Origin: Squalus acanthias
Lineage: Eukaryota
NCBI GenBank assembly: GCA_030390025.1
Contig: CM059432.1
Coordinates: forward strand, 94,056,001 to 94,120,000
Length of the DNA: 64,000 nucleotides
Direction: 5' to 3'
Numbering within the stretch: position 1 is the stretch's first letter; each line of letters opens with the position of its first letter. This document shows positions 38,901 to 50,529 of this stretch, one piece after another. The notes beneath the pieces were generated by a model that was not told the origin of the DNA, made no database searches, and saw only the letters and a program-made list of their open reading frames with translations. Both the position numbers and the translations under genes were made by a program.

Positions 38901-39413
38901 CTGATGCCTCACAGAATCTCGATAATCATCAATGCATTCGAGCCCCAGGCTGACATTGCCAATTAGTGATAATCTTTTTCACAGTAAGATTTCCTTGGTT
39001 AGCAGTGATCTTTCACTTTATTTGATGTTTTTGAGAAGGTCATACTGCTCATCTAGATGTAGCATACATTTATAAGTGAGTCTCTTGAGTAGGGTTATCA
39101 CTAAATAATGATTTAGACTGACATTGGGCAATGCATCAAAAAGCTGTCTGCATTACTAAAGCTGATGTCACACTGCAGAATATTTTAACACATAAGTAGT
39201 TGTAATATTTTTAAACTGCGGTTATATCTATGCTGCAGGGAATACATGTTGCAGGAAATGTTAGAAGTTTGAATATTTCTGTGATACAGCTTTTTTCCAT
39301 GACTATAGGAAAACCACTGTGGGCAAATGCTGTGCAGGTTCTGCTACGCTGAATTGACGAACAGTGACCATCAGCCTCTCTGTTAGCTTATTATGACATA
39401 TATACATAATTAC

Positions 39414-39628
39414 TGACGTAATAAAGACTCACTACGCACTTGAACATAAAGCAAGGCTTTAATCAACTTGTAACAAAACATGGAGGTCTAGTTAGCAGTC
39501 ACTAGCTTCCTGTTTCCAGATTGTCTCTGCCCAAGGTGGGCCCATGCCTGAGTATTTATACTCCCTGGACGGCGCCCCAGCTGGCCGCCCAGTAGTACTT
39601 CCTGAGTTGTTACTTGCGATTTATGACA
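39414..39628 (-). repeat. 3' LTR
   Basis: Direct repeat of 43710-43924; preceded on the minus strand by the polypurine tract. Confidence 0.97.
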
Positions 39629-39915
39629 TTCTTCCTCCCAAAAAGGTTTGGAAGTCCAGTCTTCCTTTAACGGACTAGGCGGACCAGAAATAGCCGTAGA
39701 CGTTTAGCTCTCTGCTTGTGACTGGAAGGCACGTCTCCCCGGACCGTGTCCTGGTCCCTGGGTTGCTTGGCCCGTACCGGTAAGTCAGTAGAGTCCGCGT
39801 CATCTTGATCATCCTGCGGAGGACTGGGAATATCATGACTCCGGGTGCGGGTCCCCACAGGTGCTGAGCTGGCCTCATCCCGGGTCGTGGCTGGAGATTG
39901 TCCGGCGTCCTGGTT

Positions 39916-41970
39916 TCAGGTGGCCATCCTACGGGGAGCGTCCAGCTCCCTGAGTTGATCCGGTAGCGTTGCCGGCAGATCCCCCGATGTCCCAGGCGGG
40001 GCGTCATTTTCATAGGGGTGCGGAGTGTTGATATCATTGTCGGGGGATCCTTCATCATTCGGGCCCGTGTGACCGGTTGGGCAGGGAGCCAGATCTCGGA
40101 GCGAGACGGTGGTCTCCCGGCCATCAGGGTACCGTACGTGCGCATACGTGGGGTTTACCTCCGTTAACTCCACCTCGTCAACGAGAGGGTCGTTTTTGGC
40201 AGACCGGACGAACCTCCGGAGTAGCACCGGGCCTGGAGCCACCAACCATGACGGTAGAGACGTCCCATATGTAGAGCGACGCCGGAATTTGAAGAATCGC
40301 TCATGAGGCGTGACATTAGTAGATGTGGAGAGAAGAGACCTGATAGAGTGTAACGCGTCGGGGAGCACCGTTTCCCACTGCTGGTCCGGCAGGTTGCGTG
40401 ACCTTCGTGCCAGACGGACAGCGTTCCAGATGATGGCATTGTATCGTTCAACCTGTCCGTTACCGATTGGGTGGTATGGTGTCGTCCTACTTGAGGCGAT
40501 TCCCCGTTGGGAGAGATAACTTTTAAGTTCACTCGACATAAAGGAGGGACCCCGATCAGTGTGGATAAAATTGGCCGTCCCGCAAAGGGAAAAGACCTGA
40601 TCGAGGCATTTAATTACCGTAGAGGTAAGCATATTAGGGCAGGGGAAGGCGAAGGGAAAGCGTGAATACTCGTCCACCATCGTAAGTAGGTAGGTGTTCC
40701 TTGTCGACGAAGGCAATGGCCCTTTAAAGTCTATGCTGAGCCTCTGCATAGGCTGCATTGCATGTATGAGTAAGCCATCTGATGGGCGAAAGAATTGTGG
40801 TTTCAATTCTGCACAAATCCTACAGGAGGAGCATGTTTTCTTTACGTCCTCGGTTGAAAATGGTAGATTTTTGGAGCGCACAAAGTGCAACATGCGGGTC
40901 ACACCAGGATGGCATAAGTCCATATGCAAATCCACCAGAGTCGACGTTGACATTGAGGAGCAAAATGCCCGTGTGAAGGTATCTGGGGCCACGTTCTGTT
41001 TGCCGGGTCGGTAACAGATAGTATATCCAAAGGCAGCCAGCTCCATCCTCCAGAGTTGAATTTTATTATTTTTGATTTTCGTGCACCTCCGGTTATCCAA
41101 CATGAAGGCCACAGAGCGCTGGTCAGTTATAAGCGTAAAATGACGCCGAGCAAGAAAATGACCCCATTGGCGTACAGCCTCGATGATGGCCGTAGCCTCC
41201 TTCTCGACGGGGGGGTAATGGAGCTCGCTACCCTGCAAGGTTCTGGATAGGAATGCCATGGGTCGGCCACCTTGATTCAAGGTAGCGGAGATCGCCACCT
41301 CCGATGCATCGCATTCGACCACAAAAGGAAGATTTTCGTCAATGGAGCAAAGCGTGGCTTTCTCCAGCTGTCGTTTGAGGAGGTTGAAGGCAGAAATAGC
41401 CGTAGCTTCCAATGGAAAAGACTTCGCATGGAGCAGGGGCTGTATTTTATCGGAGAAGTGTGGTATCCATTTTGCGTAATAAGCAAACATGCCAAGTGCC
41501 CGACGAAGAGAGCCGAGGTTCGTCGGGGGAGGGAGCTCCTGAAGTGGACGAAGTCGCTCTGGGTCCGGTTTAATAATACCGTTGCCCACCCAGTAGCCAA
41601 GAATGTTCACCGATGGCACCGACTTCACCGATTTGGATTCGTTTAACGTTAAGTGGCGACGGCGGAGTACGTCAAAAAATCTCTGAAGATTGGCGTCATG
41701 CTCCTTTTGATCATGGCCGGCAATAGTGATATTGTCTAAATACGGAAAGGTATCCGTCAAGTTCTCTTGCCGGACTAGGCCATCCATGGCCCGTTGGAAG
41801 ACGGCCACCCCATTAGTGACCCCGAATGGAAGGCGGCGAAACTGGAAAAGCCGACCATTGGCCTCAAAGGCTGTATACTTCTTGTCGGAGTCTTGCAGTG
41901 GCACCTGATGGTACGCGCTTTTTAAATCGAAGGTCGAGAATACCTTGTATTTGGCAAGGTTGTTGACCAT
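39916..41970 (-). CDS. pol: Gypsy Pol: RT, RNase H, integrase (the frame is open further upstream, to about 42048)
   Basis: FDLKSAYHQV, LPFG, YLDN, ECDAS, EKEA, LITDQ; HHCC zinc finger; DDE motifs SIDFKG, HTDRG, QVER. Confidence 0.95.
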   Translation of the reverse strand: MVNNLAKYKVFSTFDLKSAYHQVPLQDSDKKYTAFEANGRLFQFRRLPFGVTNGVAVFQRAMDGLVRQENLTDTFPYLDNITIAGHDQKEHDANLQRFFDVLRRRHLTLNESKSVKSVPSVNILGYWVGNGIIKPDPERLRPLQELPPPTNLGSLRRALGMFAYYAKWIPHFSDKIQPLLHAKSFPLEATAISAFNLLKRQLEKATLCSIDENLPFVVECDASEVAISATLNQGGRPMAFLSRTLQGSELHYPPVEKEATAIIEAVRQWGHFLARRHFTLITDQRSVAFMLDNRRCTKIKNNKIQLWRMELAAFGYTICYRPGKQNVAPDTFTRAFCSSMSTSTLVDLHMDLCHPGVTRMLHFVRSKNLPFSTEDVKKTCSSCRICAELKPQFFRPSDGLLIHAMQPMQRLSIDFKGPLPSSTRNTYLLTMVDEYSRFPFAFPCPNMLTSTVIKCLDQVFSLCGTANFIHTDRGPSFMSSELKSYLSQRGIASSRTTPYHPIGNGQVERYNAIIWNAVRLARRSRNLPDQQWETVLPDALHSIRSLLSTSTNVTPHERFFKFRRRSTYGTSLPSWLVAPGPVLLRRFVRSAKNDPLVDEVELTEVNPTYAHVRYPDGRETTVSLRDLAPCPTGHTGPNDEGSPDNDINTPHPYENDAPPGTSGDLPATLPDQLRELDAPRRMAT

Positions 41971-42016
41971 GTCATCTATGCGTGGCAGCGGGTAGGCATC
42001 CAGATCGGTATATTGA

Positions 42017-43609
42017 TTAATAGTCTGCGAATAATCGATACACAGACGTTTTTTTATGTTGTTTTAAGGGATTCCTCACGATGACGACCTGAGCCCGCCA
42101 GGGAGATGAACATGGCTCGATAATACCGTCGACTAAAAGGCGAGAGATTTCCGCCTCAATAAACGCTCGATCGTCTTGGCTAAAGCGCCGCGATTTGGTG
42201 GCTATGGGTTTACAGCGGGGGGGAAGATTGGCAAACAGGGAGGGTTCACCGAGTAAGGCCGCCGAGAGTGCACAAAACGGCACCTTAGAAATGGTAAGCT
42301 CCGGCCTTGACCCTCCAAACTCAAAAGTGATCTTCTTGTGCTGCTTCTGGAAGTCCTGTCCCAGAAGCACATCGCTACATAAGTTTTCGAGTACTCCGAG
42401 CCGGGTGGAGAGATACGTGCGGCCGTTGAGGATGAGGTTGACAAGACAGAAGCCAGAAGAATTGGTGGTCAGAGTCGTCAGAGCCATTGCAATCTCCCTG
42501 TCCGAGGGATAAGTGTGCAGTTTTAACCTGTTGACAGCCTGCTTACTAATGAAGCTGTCAGAGCTGCAGGAGTCGATTAGCGCGCTTAGAGTGTGCCCAT
42601 TTACTGAAACCTTCGTGGCTGCATGGGACAAACTTTGGGGAAAAACAGCCGTGATGGGAGGAGGGGCAATTTTCCCTTCGGCAACTGTAGCCTTAACAGT
42701 GGTTCCTGGGGGAGGAGCAGCTCCATAGATAGCAGCTGTGAAGCTAACAGGAGCTCTCGACCGGTATACTTTAGAGGAGCGGCCTTTCTTGTTAGCAAAG
42801 GCCCGTGACTGGCATACCTTGGAAAAGTGTCCTTTCTTGCTGCAATGATTGCAGGTCACATTACGAGCCGGGCAAAATTTTCTGTGATGGCACGCCCCTC
42901 CACAAAAGAAACACTTTCTTCCTGATTGCCAGGATGCTGCTAGGGCGGGGTCGTCATCAGCAAAGGCCTCAAGGGTAGGGTCGTCGTCCGTTAGAGTAGA
43001 GTCGACATCAGTGGGGGCATCCGCCCGAGACCTACCGAAAGACTCATTAAAGGAGATAGCCACCGCCCGTGCACGTGGTGGGAGATAAGTGTCTGCATTT
43101 TTCTTGGCCAAGTCCAAGGAACACGCCTGGTCATAAGCAGCCCGTAAATTGAGGGTTTTATTTTCCAGCAGGCGCTGACGTATAAAAGGGGACGCGATCC
43201 CATTGATAAAGGAATCGCGGATTAGTTCCTCTTGATACTGTTCAGCTGTAACTGCTTTAAGGTTACAATCCTTGCTGAGCCTGCGAAGTTTCTGGAGAAA
43301 TTCATCGAGTGATTCCCCAGGCTGCTGCCGAGTTGTGGCCAGTAGGTGTCGAGCAAAGATTTCATTTGGGGACTTGACATATAGCTGCTGTAAGATTTCG
43401 ATAGCAGTGTCATAGTCTATACAGTCCTCAATATAATCATACACATGAGGAGACACGTAGTTGATAAGCATTCGTAACTTATTAGGGACATCCGCCCCAC
43501 ATTCTTCAAGAAAGTTGCTAAAGGTACGAAACCAATGCTTCCATACCTTCGCTGCCGCAGGTGCATTCGGGTCCAGGTCGAGACAAGCGGGTCTAAGGAG
43601 TTTTTCCAT
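42017..43609 (-). CDS. gag: Gypsy Gag, aspartic protease and RT N-terminus
   Basis: RQQPGESLDEF motif; two CCHC knuckles (CFFCGGACHHRKFC, CNHCSKKGHFSKVC); LIDSCSS and VLLGQDF; IIEPCSSPW. Confidence 0.95.
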   Translation of the reverse strand: MEKLLRPACLDLDPNAPAAAKVWKHWFRTFSNFLEECGADVPNKLRMLINYVSPHVYDYIEDCIDYDTAIEILQQLYVKSPNEIFARHLLATTRQQPGESLDEFLQKLRRLSKDCNLKAVTAEQYQEELIRDSFINGIASPFIRQRLLENKTLNLRAAYDQACSLDLAKKNADTYLPPRARAVAISFNESFGRSRADAPTDVDSTLTDDDPTLEAFADDDPALAASWQSGRKCFFCGGACHHRKFCPARNVTCNHCSKKGHFSKVCQSRAFANKKGRSSKVYRSRAPVSFTAAIYGAAPPPGTTVKATVAEGKIAPPPITAVFPQSLSHAATKVSVNGHTLSALIDSCSSDSFISKQAVNRLKLHTYPSDREIAMALTTLTTNSSGFCLVNLILNGRTYLSTRLGVLENLCSDVLLGQDFQKQHKKITFEFGGSRPELTISKVPFCALSAALLGEPSLFANLPPRCKPIATKSRRFSQDDRAFIEAEISRLLVDGIIEPCSSPWRAQVVIVRNPLKQHKKTSVYRLFADY

Positions 43610-43709
43610 GATGGATCAGTTTCTTGCCCTAGTTCCCTTCTGTGGTTCGAGTTGCAGCTGGTTGTTCCAAATCACCCAAAGCGTGGAGACGATACCAAGT
43701 TGATTAAAT

Positions 43710-43924
43710 TGACGTAATAAAGACTCACTACGCACTTGAACATAAAGCAAGGCTTTAATCAACTTGTAACAAAACATGGAGGTCTGGTTAGCAGTCACTA
43801 GCTTCCTGTTTCCAGATTGTCTCTGCCCAAGGTGGGCCCATGCCTGAGTATTTATACTCCCTGGACGGCGCCCCAGCTGGCCGCCCAGTAGTACTTCCTG
43901 AGTTGTTACTTGCGATTTATGACA
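43710..43924 (-). repeat. 5' LTR
   Basis: Direct repeat of 39414-39628; TATAAA near 43855 and ATTAAA at 43759-43754 on the minus strand. Confidence 0.97.
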
Positions 43925-44467
43925 ATTACATTTCCAGATGTTGATTAAAATAGACCCAGCAAAAATGAAATTCAGATGGAGGTTATCTGACAAATCTAAA
44001 GGCCTGAACCTTCGTGTAGAAAAGGACAGCTGTCTGAAAGTGTGCTAACAGGCGAGACTAATACTGTTCCATTTTATTTCTGGTAACTTGCTACAGACTG
44101 TAGCTCAATAAATGTGTAATGATTGCGTTACAATCATTAATCCTTCAGTGATAATGACATCGTCCATTAGTTGCTGGAAATGTCCTCAGAAAAGGAACCA
44201 ACACAACACCAGCAATACAAAACATAAAGTAAAAGTAAAAGTAAGCAAAAATCAACCATAATGCCAGTATTTGTAAAATAAAATTTAAATGTATAGGTGG
44301 ACTGAATCTAGTGATCTCCTCTCTGGACTTAGATGAAGGTTTTAAACCACTTGAACTTTCCTTTTGCGCTTTATGATCACATTTGAATCCCTCAATGGGA
44401 TTACTTCTTGGTAATTGCTCCCAGGTATTTATTATTCTCTATGTACCACGATGTCAGGACTAAGAAG

Positions 44468-47412: not shown

Positions 47413-48649
47413 CAGTAAACTCTTGTTTAAATGGCACCTAATTATCCGGAATTCTCTAATAACCGGCAAAATTCAGGAGTAGGTTCAGGAACCCAAAGGT
47501 AAGTTTTACTGTATATTTGTGGCTGTGTAACTGGGGTTCTCGTACCTTTTGCCATGTAACCATGGCTCCTGCACATCTGGTTGTGTAACCGGGTTCCCTG
47601 TACCTGTGGCCGTGTAACCGGGGCTCCAGCACTTGTGGCCGTGTAACCGCGGCTCCTGTACCTGTGGCCGTGTAACCGTGGCTCCTGTACCTGTGGCCGT
47701 GTAACCGCGGCTCCTGTACCTGTGGCTGTGTAACCGGGACTCCTGCACAAGTGGCCGTGTAACCGCTGCTCCTGTACCTGTGGCCGTGTAACCGGGGCTC
47801 CAGTACCTGTGGCCGTGTAACCGGGGCTCCTGGATCTGTGGCCGTGTAACCGGGGCTCCTGTACCTGTGGCCGTGTAACCGGGGCTCCTGTACCTGTGGC
47901 CATGTAACCGGGGCTCCAGTACCTGTGGCCGTGTAACCGGGGCTCCAGCACTTGTGGCCGTGTAACCGGGGCTCCAGCACTTGTGGCCGTGTAACCGGGG
48001 CTCCTGGATCTGTGGCCGTGTAACCGGGGCTCCTGGATCTGTGGCCGTGTAACCGGGGCTCCTGGATCTATGGCCGTGTAACCGGGGCTCCAGTACCTGT
48101 GGCCGTGTAACCGGGGCTCCAGCACTTGTGGCCGTGTAACCGGGGCTCCAGCACTTGTGGCCATGTAACCGGGGCTCCTGGATCTGTGGCTGTGTAACCG
48201 GGGCTCCTGGATCTGTGGCCGTGGAACCGGGGCTCCAGTACCTGTGGCCGTGTAACCGGGGCTCCAGCACCTGTGGCCGTGTAACCGGGGCTCCTGTACC
48301 TGTGGCTGTGTAACCGGGGCTCCAGTACCTGTGGCTGTGTAACCGGGGCTCCAGTACCTGTGGCTGTGTAACCGGGGCTCCTGTACCTGTGGCTGTGTAA
48401 CCGGGGCTCCAGTACCTGTGGTTGTGTAACCGGGGCTCCTGTACCTGTGGCTGTGTAACCGGGGCTCCAGTACCTGTGGCTGTGTAACTGGGGCTCCAGT
48501 ACCTGTGGCTGTGTAACCGGGGCTCCAGTACCTGTGGCTGTGTAACGGGGCTCTCGTACCTTGGTAGGTATACCTCTCCGTTATCCGGAATTTTTAATCA
48601 ACCGGCACCATCCCGGTCCCGTAGGTGTCGGATACGAAAGAGTTTACTG
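47413..48649. mobile_element. pogo/Tigger-like (Tc1/mariner) MITE
   Basis: Perfect 12-bp TIR CAGTAAACTCTT, extending imperfectly to 28 bp; TA TSD; removing it restores the CR1 reading KEISIRKKIVLEKL. Confidence 0.9.
47518..48561. repeat. 29-bp minisatellite, about 36 copies
   Basis: Unit CTGTGGCCGTGTAACCGGGGCTCC(A/T)GTAC with a few variant types; 29-aa periodicity in the translated ORFs. Confidence 0.97.
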
Positions 48650-50529
48650 TATTCGTAAAAAAATAGTGCTGGAGAAATTAATGGGACTGAAAGCTGATAA
48701 ATCCCCAGGGCCTGATAATCTGCATTCCGAGAGTACTAAAAGAGGTAGCCATGGAAATAGTGGATGCATTGGTTATCATCTTCCAAAATTCTATAGATTA
48801 TGGAACAGCTCCTGCAGATTGGAGGGTGGCAAATGTAACCCCACTATTTAAAAAAGGAGGGAGAGAGAAAACAGGGAACTACAGACCGGCTAGCCTAACA
48901 TCAGTAGTAGGGAAAATACTAGAGTCTATTGTAAAGGATGTGATAACAGGACACTTAGAAAATATCAACGGGATTAGACAAAGTCAACATGGATTTATGA
49001 AAGGGAAATCGTGTTTGACAAACCTACTGGAGTTTTTTGAGGATGTAACTGGTAGAATAGATAAGGGAGAACCAGTGGATGTGGTGTATTTGGATTTTCA
49101 GAAGGCCTTTGATAAAGTCCCACATAAGAGGTTAGTGTGCAAAATTAAAGCACATGGGATTGGGGGTAATATACTGGCATGGATTGAAAATTGGTTAACA
49201 GACAGGAAACAGAGAGTAGGAATAAATGGGTCTTTTTTGGGGTGGCAGGCGGTGACTAGTGGGGTACTGCAGGGATCAGTGCTTGGGCGCCAGCTATTCA
49301 CAATATATATCAATGATTTGGATGGGGGAACCAAATGTAATATTTCCAAGTTTGCTGACGACACGAAACTAGGTGGGATTGTGAGTTGTGAGGAGGATGC
49401 AAAGAGGCTTCAAGGCAATTTAGACAAGTTGAGTGAGTGGACAAATACATGGCAGATGCAGTATAACGTGGATAAATGTGAAGTTATCCACTTCGGTCGT
49501 AAAAACAGAAAGGCAGAGTATTATTTAAATGGTGATAGATTGGGAAATGTTGATGTACAGAGGGACCTGGGTGTCCTTGTACACCAGTCACTGAAAGCAA
49601 ACATGCAGGTGCAGCAAGCAGTTAGGAAGGCAAATGGTATGTTGGCCTTCATTGCAAGAGGATTTGAGTACAGGAGCAAGGATGTCTTACTACAGTTGTA
49701 CAGGGCCTTGGTGAGACCACACCTGAAATACTGTGTGCAGTTTTGGCCTCCTTACCTAAGAAAGGATATACTTGCCATAGAGGGAGTGCAGCGAAGGTTC
49801 ACCAGACCGATTCCTGGGATGGCAGGACTGTCATATAAGGAGAGATTGGGTCGACTAGGCCTGTATTCACTAGAGTTTAGAAGAATGAGAGTGGATCTCA
49901 TTGAAACGTATAAAATTCTGACAGGGCTAGACAGACTGGATGCAGGGAGGATGCTTCCCCTGGCTGGGGGTTCTAGAACGAGGGGTCACAGTCTCAGGAT
50001 ATGGGGGAGGACATTTAGGACTGAGATGAGAGAAATTTCTTCACTGAGGATGGTGAACCTGTGGAATTCTCTACCACAGAAGGCTGTGGAGGCCAAGTCA
50101 CTGAATATATTTAAGAAGGAGATAGATAGATTTCTAGACACAAAAGGCATCAAGGGGTATGGGGAGAGAGTGGGAATATGGTATTGAGATAGAGGATCAG
50201 CCATGATCATATTGAATGGTGGAGCAGGCTCGAAGGGCCGAATAGCCTCCTGCTGCTCCTATTTTCCTATGTTTCTATGCCTGGTGATGAGAGATTGAAA
50301 GCAAGGCAATGGCAAACTCAATAGTCTGTAATCTGAGCCAGGCAGGTCCATAGTACTCCAGACTACAAGTGATGATTGACCAAGTGATGCTAGATTAACT
50401 TATTGTTGAGACCTAGAGGGATAGACCTGTCACTGGGTGATGAGGCTCTTTCCACTCACCTCCTTGCAAGTAATTGGATAAACAGTGGCAAACCTAACGT
50501 GCCTTGAGCTGGTAATTTTAAACTGTTTG

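Follow-up and report, generated by a model that had tools for sequence, protein, structure and literature searches.

A young Gypsy family of Squalus acanthias whose primer site complements its own LTR: a candidate self-priming retrotransposon

To our knowledge, priming of reverse transcription by an element's own RNA has been proven experimentally only in fission yeast, and it is usually taken as a mark of the Tf1/sushi chromoviruses. In a 64,000-nt stretch of Squalus acanthias DNA (hereafter the window; contig CM059432.1, positions 94,056,001 to 94,120,000), a sequence-only reading had singled out a Gypsy element in which the 5' LTR is followed, one base on, by a 13-nt complement of the LTR itself instead of the TGG of a tRNA primer-binding site. 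The question raised by this locus is thus whether the element supplies its own primer and, if so, whether it does so outside the lineage in which self-priming is known. The reading that we favor, with a probability of roughly 0.8, is that the element would prime reverse transcription in cis with a 13-base piece of its own RNA, in the manner of Tf1; that the primer is derived from the element, by whatever route, is very probable.

The element and its primer site

The element lies on the minus strand (43924-39414, about 4.5 kb; Table 1) and has the Gypsy domain order: PR-RT-RH-IN together with TG...CA LTRs, a target-site duplication and a polypurine tract, which is the combination that characterizes Ty3/Gypsy elements. 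The nearest solved structures are those of Ty3. Its Gag contains two CX2CX4HX4C knuckles, in keeping with the two-knuckle Gag initially read from the sequence. A frameshift near the start of RT breaks the window copy, and other copies in the genome consist of a single frame of about 1315 aa. Exact pattern counts over the 3.7-Gb host genome gave 653 copies of this family with an intact junction, and both arms of the complementarity were unchanged in all 30 copies fetched by DNA search. The window element is a young, high-copy Gypsy retrotransposon.

Table 1. Features of the element in the window (positions of the window; all on the minus strand)
Feature	Position	Strand	Remarks
Target-site duplication, upstream copy	43925..43929	-	identical 5-mer (GTAAT) at both element ends
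5' LTR, 215 nt, TG...CA	43710..43924	-	214/215 bases shared with the 3' LTR
TATAAA box, candidate promoter	43851..43856	-	starts 90 nt before the arm; shared with the second family of this genome
CA, candidate start site (predicted)	43824..43825	-	follows the first T of the TATA box by 32 nt and precedes the arm by 58 nt
LTR arm, predicted 13-nt self-primer	43754..43766	-	predicted cut 43754/43753; pairing, covariation, hot spot
ATTAAA, poly(A)-signal-like hexamer (candidate signal)	43754..43759	-	3' end of the arm
Predicted 9-bp U5 hairpin within the loop	43712..43733	-	minimum-energy and centroid folds; not conserved as such across families
Spacer, single A, between LTR end and primer site	43709	-
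Primer-binding site, complement of the LTR arm, no TGG	43696..43708	-
Site of recurrent mutation, first base past the helix (position 14)	43695	-	653 copies and tree
Gag (two zinc knuckles), protease and RT start	42017..43609	-	broken by a frameshift in the overlap with the next frame
RT, RNase H, integrase; without chromodomain or envelope frame	39916..42063	-
Polypurine tract, AA-terminated, before the 3' LTR	39629..39639	-
3' LTR, with second arm copy at 39470-39458	39414..39628	-	1/215 mismatch to the 5' LTR
Target-site duplication, downstream copy	39409..39413	-	GTAAT, equal to the upstream 5-mer

The sequence-only reading gave the letters and coordinates of the self-complementarity, its 45-nt loop and its priming polarity, and all of these proved correct: 43708-43696 and 43766-43754 form 13 ungapped Watson-Crick pairs, the flanking bases are unpaired on both sides, and the LTR arm has its 3' end toward the LTR boundary, i.e. 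the polarity required of a minus-strand primer. The 13-mer occurs three times in the window (in the site and in the arm of each LTR) and in none of 100 shuffles of the window. Folding of the 83-nt stretch that contains both arms gave a z of -3.7, with none of 200 shuffles equally stable.

The absence of a TGG directly after the LTR, which had likewise been claimed, was confirmed. A TGG is present only 11 nt further on (43697-43695), where it reads TGA in 10 of the 30 fetched copies and is kept in only 108 of the 653 copies genome-wide; we rejected it as a displaced tRNA site because its third base varies among copies. The longest match between the primer site and 78 host tRNA genes (Lys, Cys, Gly and Thr genes plus two unclear calls only) was 7 nt. 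The sampled tRNA genes were mostly tRNA-Cys and tandem arrays of tRNA-Lys(TTT) with a spacing of about 1.8 kb.

At the other end of the element, the polypurine tract ends in AA ahead of the TG of the LTR in most loci with two LTRs, while the primer side reads CA-A and then the site; the two cDNA ends may therefore carry unequal overhangs. Elsewhere in the window, an array of more than 30 copies of a 29-nt unit (47428-48600) is found inside a LINE-like element, whose RT-like frame resumes at 48691-50187.

Pairing among copies and relatives

The host genome contains a second family, with a Gag about 77% identical to that of the first, in which a matched one-base indel in both arms leaves a 12-bp helix; this helix is perfect in nine of the 11 copies fetched. 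A separate Gypsy lineage of the same genome provided a tRNA-type control: TGG was found near the LTR end in six of six loci with both LTRs (10 fetched), and the longest self-match was 7 nt. Gypsy families with a TGG primer site are represented by L252, L253, L257, L258, L260 and L261; L252 has a Gag with a weak PNMA match, and frames of about 1335 aa occur in many copies of its family. Within the host genome, a matched double change in the 5' LTR and the site was also seen in L172/L191, a recombinant-looking case with mismatched flanks, and the variant recurs in a solo LTR. Solo LTRs are present (L192), and one copy (L081) is inserted, on the evidence of its upstream flank, within an older, diverged LTR of its own family.

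Covariation in relatives had been proposed as a check on the original reading. Of 393 stretches confirmed with an alignment of 43 Gag proteins, the best 80 gave us 78 metagenome loci, which together with the window and two second-family copies fell into 35 clusters at 80% DNA identity. The helix test set consisted of the 70 loci in which 150 nt or more of sequence precede Gag. A perfect inverted repeat of at least 12 bp was present upstream of Gag in 57 of the 70 loci and in 27 of 29 clusters, as against 0/70, 0/62 and 1/41 in control windows of equal size taken inside Gag or in the flank (1/173 overall). The helix fell short of 12 bp in 13 of the 70 loci and was absent from two clusters with enough upstream DNA (L103 and L134); among six clusters with shorter upstream DNA, it was visible in two.

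The 29 helix-positive families have helices of 12-19 bp (lengths above 13 being inflated by T-rich arms and A-rich sites) and loops, i.e. arm-to-site distances, of 24-72 nt. None has TGG at the primer site. Pairing was kept while the letters changed: the 29 families contain 25 distinct 12-nt primer sites, each matched by its own LTR, and when the arm of one family was set against the site of another, the mean match was 7.5/12, with 12/12 in 10 of 812 pairs. Position 13, which was not selected for, pairs in 26 of the 29 families versus 13.2 by permutation, and pairing fades by position 16; as the families are related and positions 1-12 were chosen for pairing, the permutation values overstate independence. 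The trinucleotide CA-A directly precedes the primer site in 28 of 29 families, the LTR end having been verified against a 3' LTR in six of them, and the arm ends in ATTAAA (13/29) or AATAAA (7/29).

Compensation was also seen on a finer scale. In L112, a changed base is found in both LTRs with the partner change in the site, and matched double changes within families occur in L107/L108/L114 as well. Of six variants in the primer site (positions 7 and 10), five are without a matching LTR change, all five leaving a G-U pair, and two arm variants confined to the 5' LTR are without a corresponding change in the site, as expected for changes that occurred after insertion. Two further candidates for compensation, L150 and L148 (positions 14 and 17), were discarded: position 14 is variable anyway, and the L148 change is present in one LTR only.

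As for the loop, a hairpin of at least 4 bp starting at the first base after the arm was found in 22 of the 29 families (shuffles: mean 5.9, maximum 12), compared with 9-16 of 29 from other start points; it is absent in that form from the family of the window and its sister family. General folding of the loop was unexceptional (mean z -0.2; 8/29 families below -1). With regard to the three-duplex 'pretzel' of Tf1/sushi elements, pairing of at least 6 bp between the loop and the 20 nt past the site occurred in 22 of 29 families (shuffles 17.8, p=0.02), and pairing between the loop and the LTR end in 10 of 29 (shuffles 8.4, p=0.32). Scanning viral contigs for relatives returned none, and an atlas search returned generic Gag clusters only.

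A mutation hot spot and the possible modes of priming

The base directly past the helix, 43695 (position 14), is A, G, C and T in 529, 108, 15 and one of the 653 copies, respectively, with the variation recurring across subfamilies. A base other than the commonest one is thus found there in 124 of the 653 copies, versus 4, 2 and 3 copies at positions 7, 10 and 13. We then built quick trees of 68 copies (70 kept from 73, two duplicates dropped), each without the tested site. On these trees, whose copies were picked by searches that enrich G and C, 43695 changes 24 times (0.81 of the shuffled value) and takes two or three states on all five repeated haplotypes; 14 internal sites treated alike change 1-5 times (0.07-0.44 of shuffled). 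A CpG site in U3 (43883) is likewise homoplastic (10 changes, 0.69). At the corresponding spot, the second family shows five junction forms among 11 copies.

This hot spot would fit a plus strand that terminates on a 13-nt self-primer. A primer that extended upstream beyond 43766 would template T next, and T, the base expected from read-through past 43766, is the rarest state of all. The primer as used seems to begin at 43766. MMLV RT is reported to add +A, +C or +G where the RNA end is uncapped, and chiefly +C where it is capped (PMC6885630); the spectrum here is like that of uncapped ends, a weak comparison in that the enzyme differs and the states are inherited. In Ty1 and Ty3, the primer site is described as not being rewritten from the primer (PMC5371799), and our interpretation of the hot spot accordingly assumes a plus-strand transfer of the retroviral kind.

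The single copy with T (L278:679-4100) is one insertion with an intact target duplication. It reads LTR, spacer, site, reverse complement of the arm, U3, polypurine tract and 126 internal bases, and then jumps to element base 1603: a 297-nt inverted segment starts from the primer site, and element bases 230-1602 are deleted. No microhomology was found at its second junction. This arrangement fits a plus strand that ended in the site and annealed to the 3'-LTR arm, or rare priming by that arm; it could instead reflect a later template switch between DNA copies at the 13-nt repeat.

Where the RNA starts bears on how the primer would be made. A TATA about 90 nt upstream of the primer segment had been pointed out from the sequence, and a TATAAA box does start at that distance (90 nt) from the arm. 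Both families of the genome conserve the TATA region, and a CA occurs at equal TATA spacing in one second-family copy. With the start at this CA, the RNA would begin about 58 nt upstream of the arm, and a second cut would be demanded to free the primer. Alternatively, the RNA may start at 43766 itself, which is a C; 24 of 29 families have a pyrimidine at position 13. The interval 25-35 nt upstream of the arm contains a TATA box in none of the 29 families, and one lies anywhere within 130 nt in three (four of the families have less than 130 nt). A start at the A of the conserved AGT, which would give an 11-nt primer as in Tf1, was set aside: positions 12 and 13 pair, and the hot spot is at 14. 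We put the two-cut form, in which the primer is freed at both ends from an RNA that starts about 58 nt upstream, at slightly less than even odds.

In the mechanism that we propose, the LTR arm would fold back onto the primer site, and a nuclease, perhaps the element's own RNase H by analogy with Tf1, would cut just after the ATTAAA hexamer. RT would then extend the cut 3' end through the spacer and U5. The plus strand would later copy the primer up to its 5' end at 43766, where RT would append an untemplated base that the second strand transfer would fix at 43695. In this way the arm would serve as the template from which the primer site is renewed, which would keep the two perfectly paired; the paired arm would also conceal the 5' copy of the poly(A) signal. 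Self-priming, as initially suggested for this element, is supported twice, by the covariation across relatives and by the hot spot at the position where the arm ends.

It is unlikely, in our estimation, that an element-derived primer acts in trans, i.e. that a short LTR RNA anneals to the site with no 5' fold-back needed, the conceivable sources being a solo or 3' LTR transcript, a product of a small-RNA pathway or an arm near the 3' end of a packaged RNA. Covariation and hot spot fit cis and trans priming alike, the arm is present in both LTRs, solo LTRs such as L192 could be a source, and the fold-back structure of the T copy is what one would expect if a 3'-LTR arm, attached to U3 and the polypurine tract, had primed once. 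However, with the 3'-LTR arm attached, the base templated at 43695 would be T, the state of one copy in 653; moreover, the arm-to-site distance keeps to 24-72 nt throughout the 29 families, and the hairpin found right after the arm in 22 of them suits a local structure that positions the cut.

Still less probable is that the helix has no role but to mask the 5' poly(A) signal or to regulate translation, with a host RNA such as a tRNA half serving as primer. A role in hiding the signal would agree with the hexamer that ends the arm in 20 of the 29 families, and priming by a host RNA with the half-tRNA primers described for copia elements (PMC6317226) and with the limited set of tRNA types to which the site was compared. 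Occlusion, however, predicts no T-poor hot spot one base past the helix, and the site keeps its place one base from the LTR end; as to a host primer, 25 different sites would each require a host RNA, and the best tRNA match is 7 nt. Finally, a chance inverted repeat or a copy-specific rearrangement, which the AT-rich 13-mer might bring to mind, is hardly credible given an intact junction in 653 copies and a helix in 27 of 29 clusters as opposed to 1 of 173 control windows.

Priming in cis by the LTR arm remains the reading that we prefer. A more specific version of it, which we regard as possible but doubtful when all its parts are taken jointly, is that a large non-chromovirus animal Gypsy lineage evolved self-priming independently, with the poly(A)-signal segment as primer and, in the families of the host genome, an RNA start about 58 nt upstream driven by a TATA promoter, and that the primer is excised at both ends of an RNA-RNA duplex, with 43695 recording its uncapped 5' end in hundreds of copies. 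Cutting the primer at both ends is a step not described for Tf1.

Lineage and comparison with known systems

Domain content bears out the original remark that the element lacks a chromodomain and is unlike Tf1/sushi. In the window, no chromodomain match was obtained at E<=0.1, PF00385 and PF24626 (the Tf2-type SH3) both being absent, and neither domain was found in 11 long relatives, 14 deeper relatives or 120 listed Pol homologs. The search does detect chromodomains: most of 120 chromovirus-type proteins used as a positive control carry both domains. Host matches to PF24626 were considered as chromovirus references and dropped, being weak, with the five that were extended proving retrovirus-like. 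The host retrovirus-like elements L197-L201, with two RNase H domains, served as outgroup.

In an RT-RNase H tree of 47 rows, which contains neither Tf1 nor a sushi sequence, 13 members (six of them proteins without DNA) form one clade with support 100, outside 10 plant and algal chromoviruses. This clade joins Mag-like and Gmr1-like rows, including the TGG-type L252, at a support of only 82 and an identity of 32%; the two labels are our own presumptive ones, L252 being called Mag-like from its site and size. A grouping of the 13 members with the chromoviruses was not rejected (AU p of 0.158), and RT-RNase H identity to the sampled chromoviruses is only 29-34%. These data support the view that the element, judged by domain content, is not a member of Tf1/sushi; an independent origin of self-priming seems likely, if unproven. 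A neighboring Gypsy-like frame at L140:9507-11402 (minus strand) has an integrase C-terminal match ahead of RT, i.e. the Gmr1-type order.

A catshark protein is among the named homologs, the others being from cnidarians, molluscs, crustaceans, echinoderms and tunicates, and most full-length relatives have one frame of about 1170-1250 aa. The Pol encoded at 39916-42063 is 68-84% identical to its ten best matches, 70-71% to Nematostella and Xenia proteins and 61% to the catshark protein, a pattern that would fit horizontal transfer among marine animals.

A separate, widespread lineage that carries a self-priming signature with strong covariation, and that was recently active in a genome of vertebrate size, is relevant to the order in which tRNA priming and self-priming arose and to how often the mode of priming has switched. 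Since primer and poly(A) signal overlap, a single helix may have two jobs. By means of a hot spot past the helix, primer ends could be mapped from genome copies alone, in any young LTR family, and LTR finders that require a tRNA match will misjudge this lineage. Among the papers that our searches listed, none described self-priming in the lineage of the window element; Repbase Reports, whose entries sometimes mention self-priming, and paper supplements may contain an earlier note.

Cigr-1 of Ciona reportedly combines short LTRs with a single frame of about 1210 aa. Our lineage resembles Cigr-1 in the single long frame of most full-length relatives and in related hosts (tunicates, molluscs); membership of the Cigr-1 clade, which has been reported in molluscs and annelids (PMC6238403, PMC8556966), is a lead only.

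Self-priming has also been predicted in plants, for Tcn1 (gypsy) and TAR (copia), by the rule that a complement of at least 10 bp lies 0-5 bp after the 5' LTR (PMC6317226). The window element falls under this rule, as Tcn1 and TAR do, although lineages and hosts differ, and the prediction for TAR, a copia element, implies that self-priming can arise outside Tf1/sushi. The parts of PMC6317226 drawn on here present no footprint of the primer end for Tcn1 or TAR, whereas the present element has the hot spot. In the fungal GalEa copia elements, the Conserved Hairpin Site is described as a conserved pairing at the primer position, with no tRNA site (PMC5445492). As described there, both GalEa arms lie downstream of the LTR, with no LTR complement; in our element, by contrast, one arm is inside the LTR and has priming polarity.

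The closest parallel in mechanism is with Tf1/Tf2 of S. pombe and Tj1 of S. japonicus. As in these elements and the Tf1/sushi group, whose primer site is reported to complement their own LTR (PMC7175516, PMC4600332, bioRxiv 10.1101/2022.12.06.519325), a site complementary to the LTR is combined with a Gypsy domain order. Unlike Tf1/sushi, the window element has neither a chromodomain nor a Tf2-type SH3, and its Gag is of the two-knuckle type. In Tf1, the RNA's initial 11 bases pair with the site, and RNase H is reported to cut between bases 11 and 12 (PMC7175516); the primer predicted here is about 13 nt long and ends in a poly(A)-signal hexamer and, with the TATA box 90 nt upstream in the host genome, may not be the 5' end of the RNA. 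Finally, where Tf1/sushi elements have a 'pretzel' of three duplexes, most relatives of the window element show a local hairpin after the arm rather than a clear pretzel.
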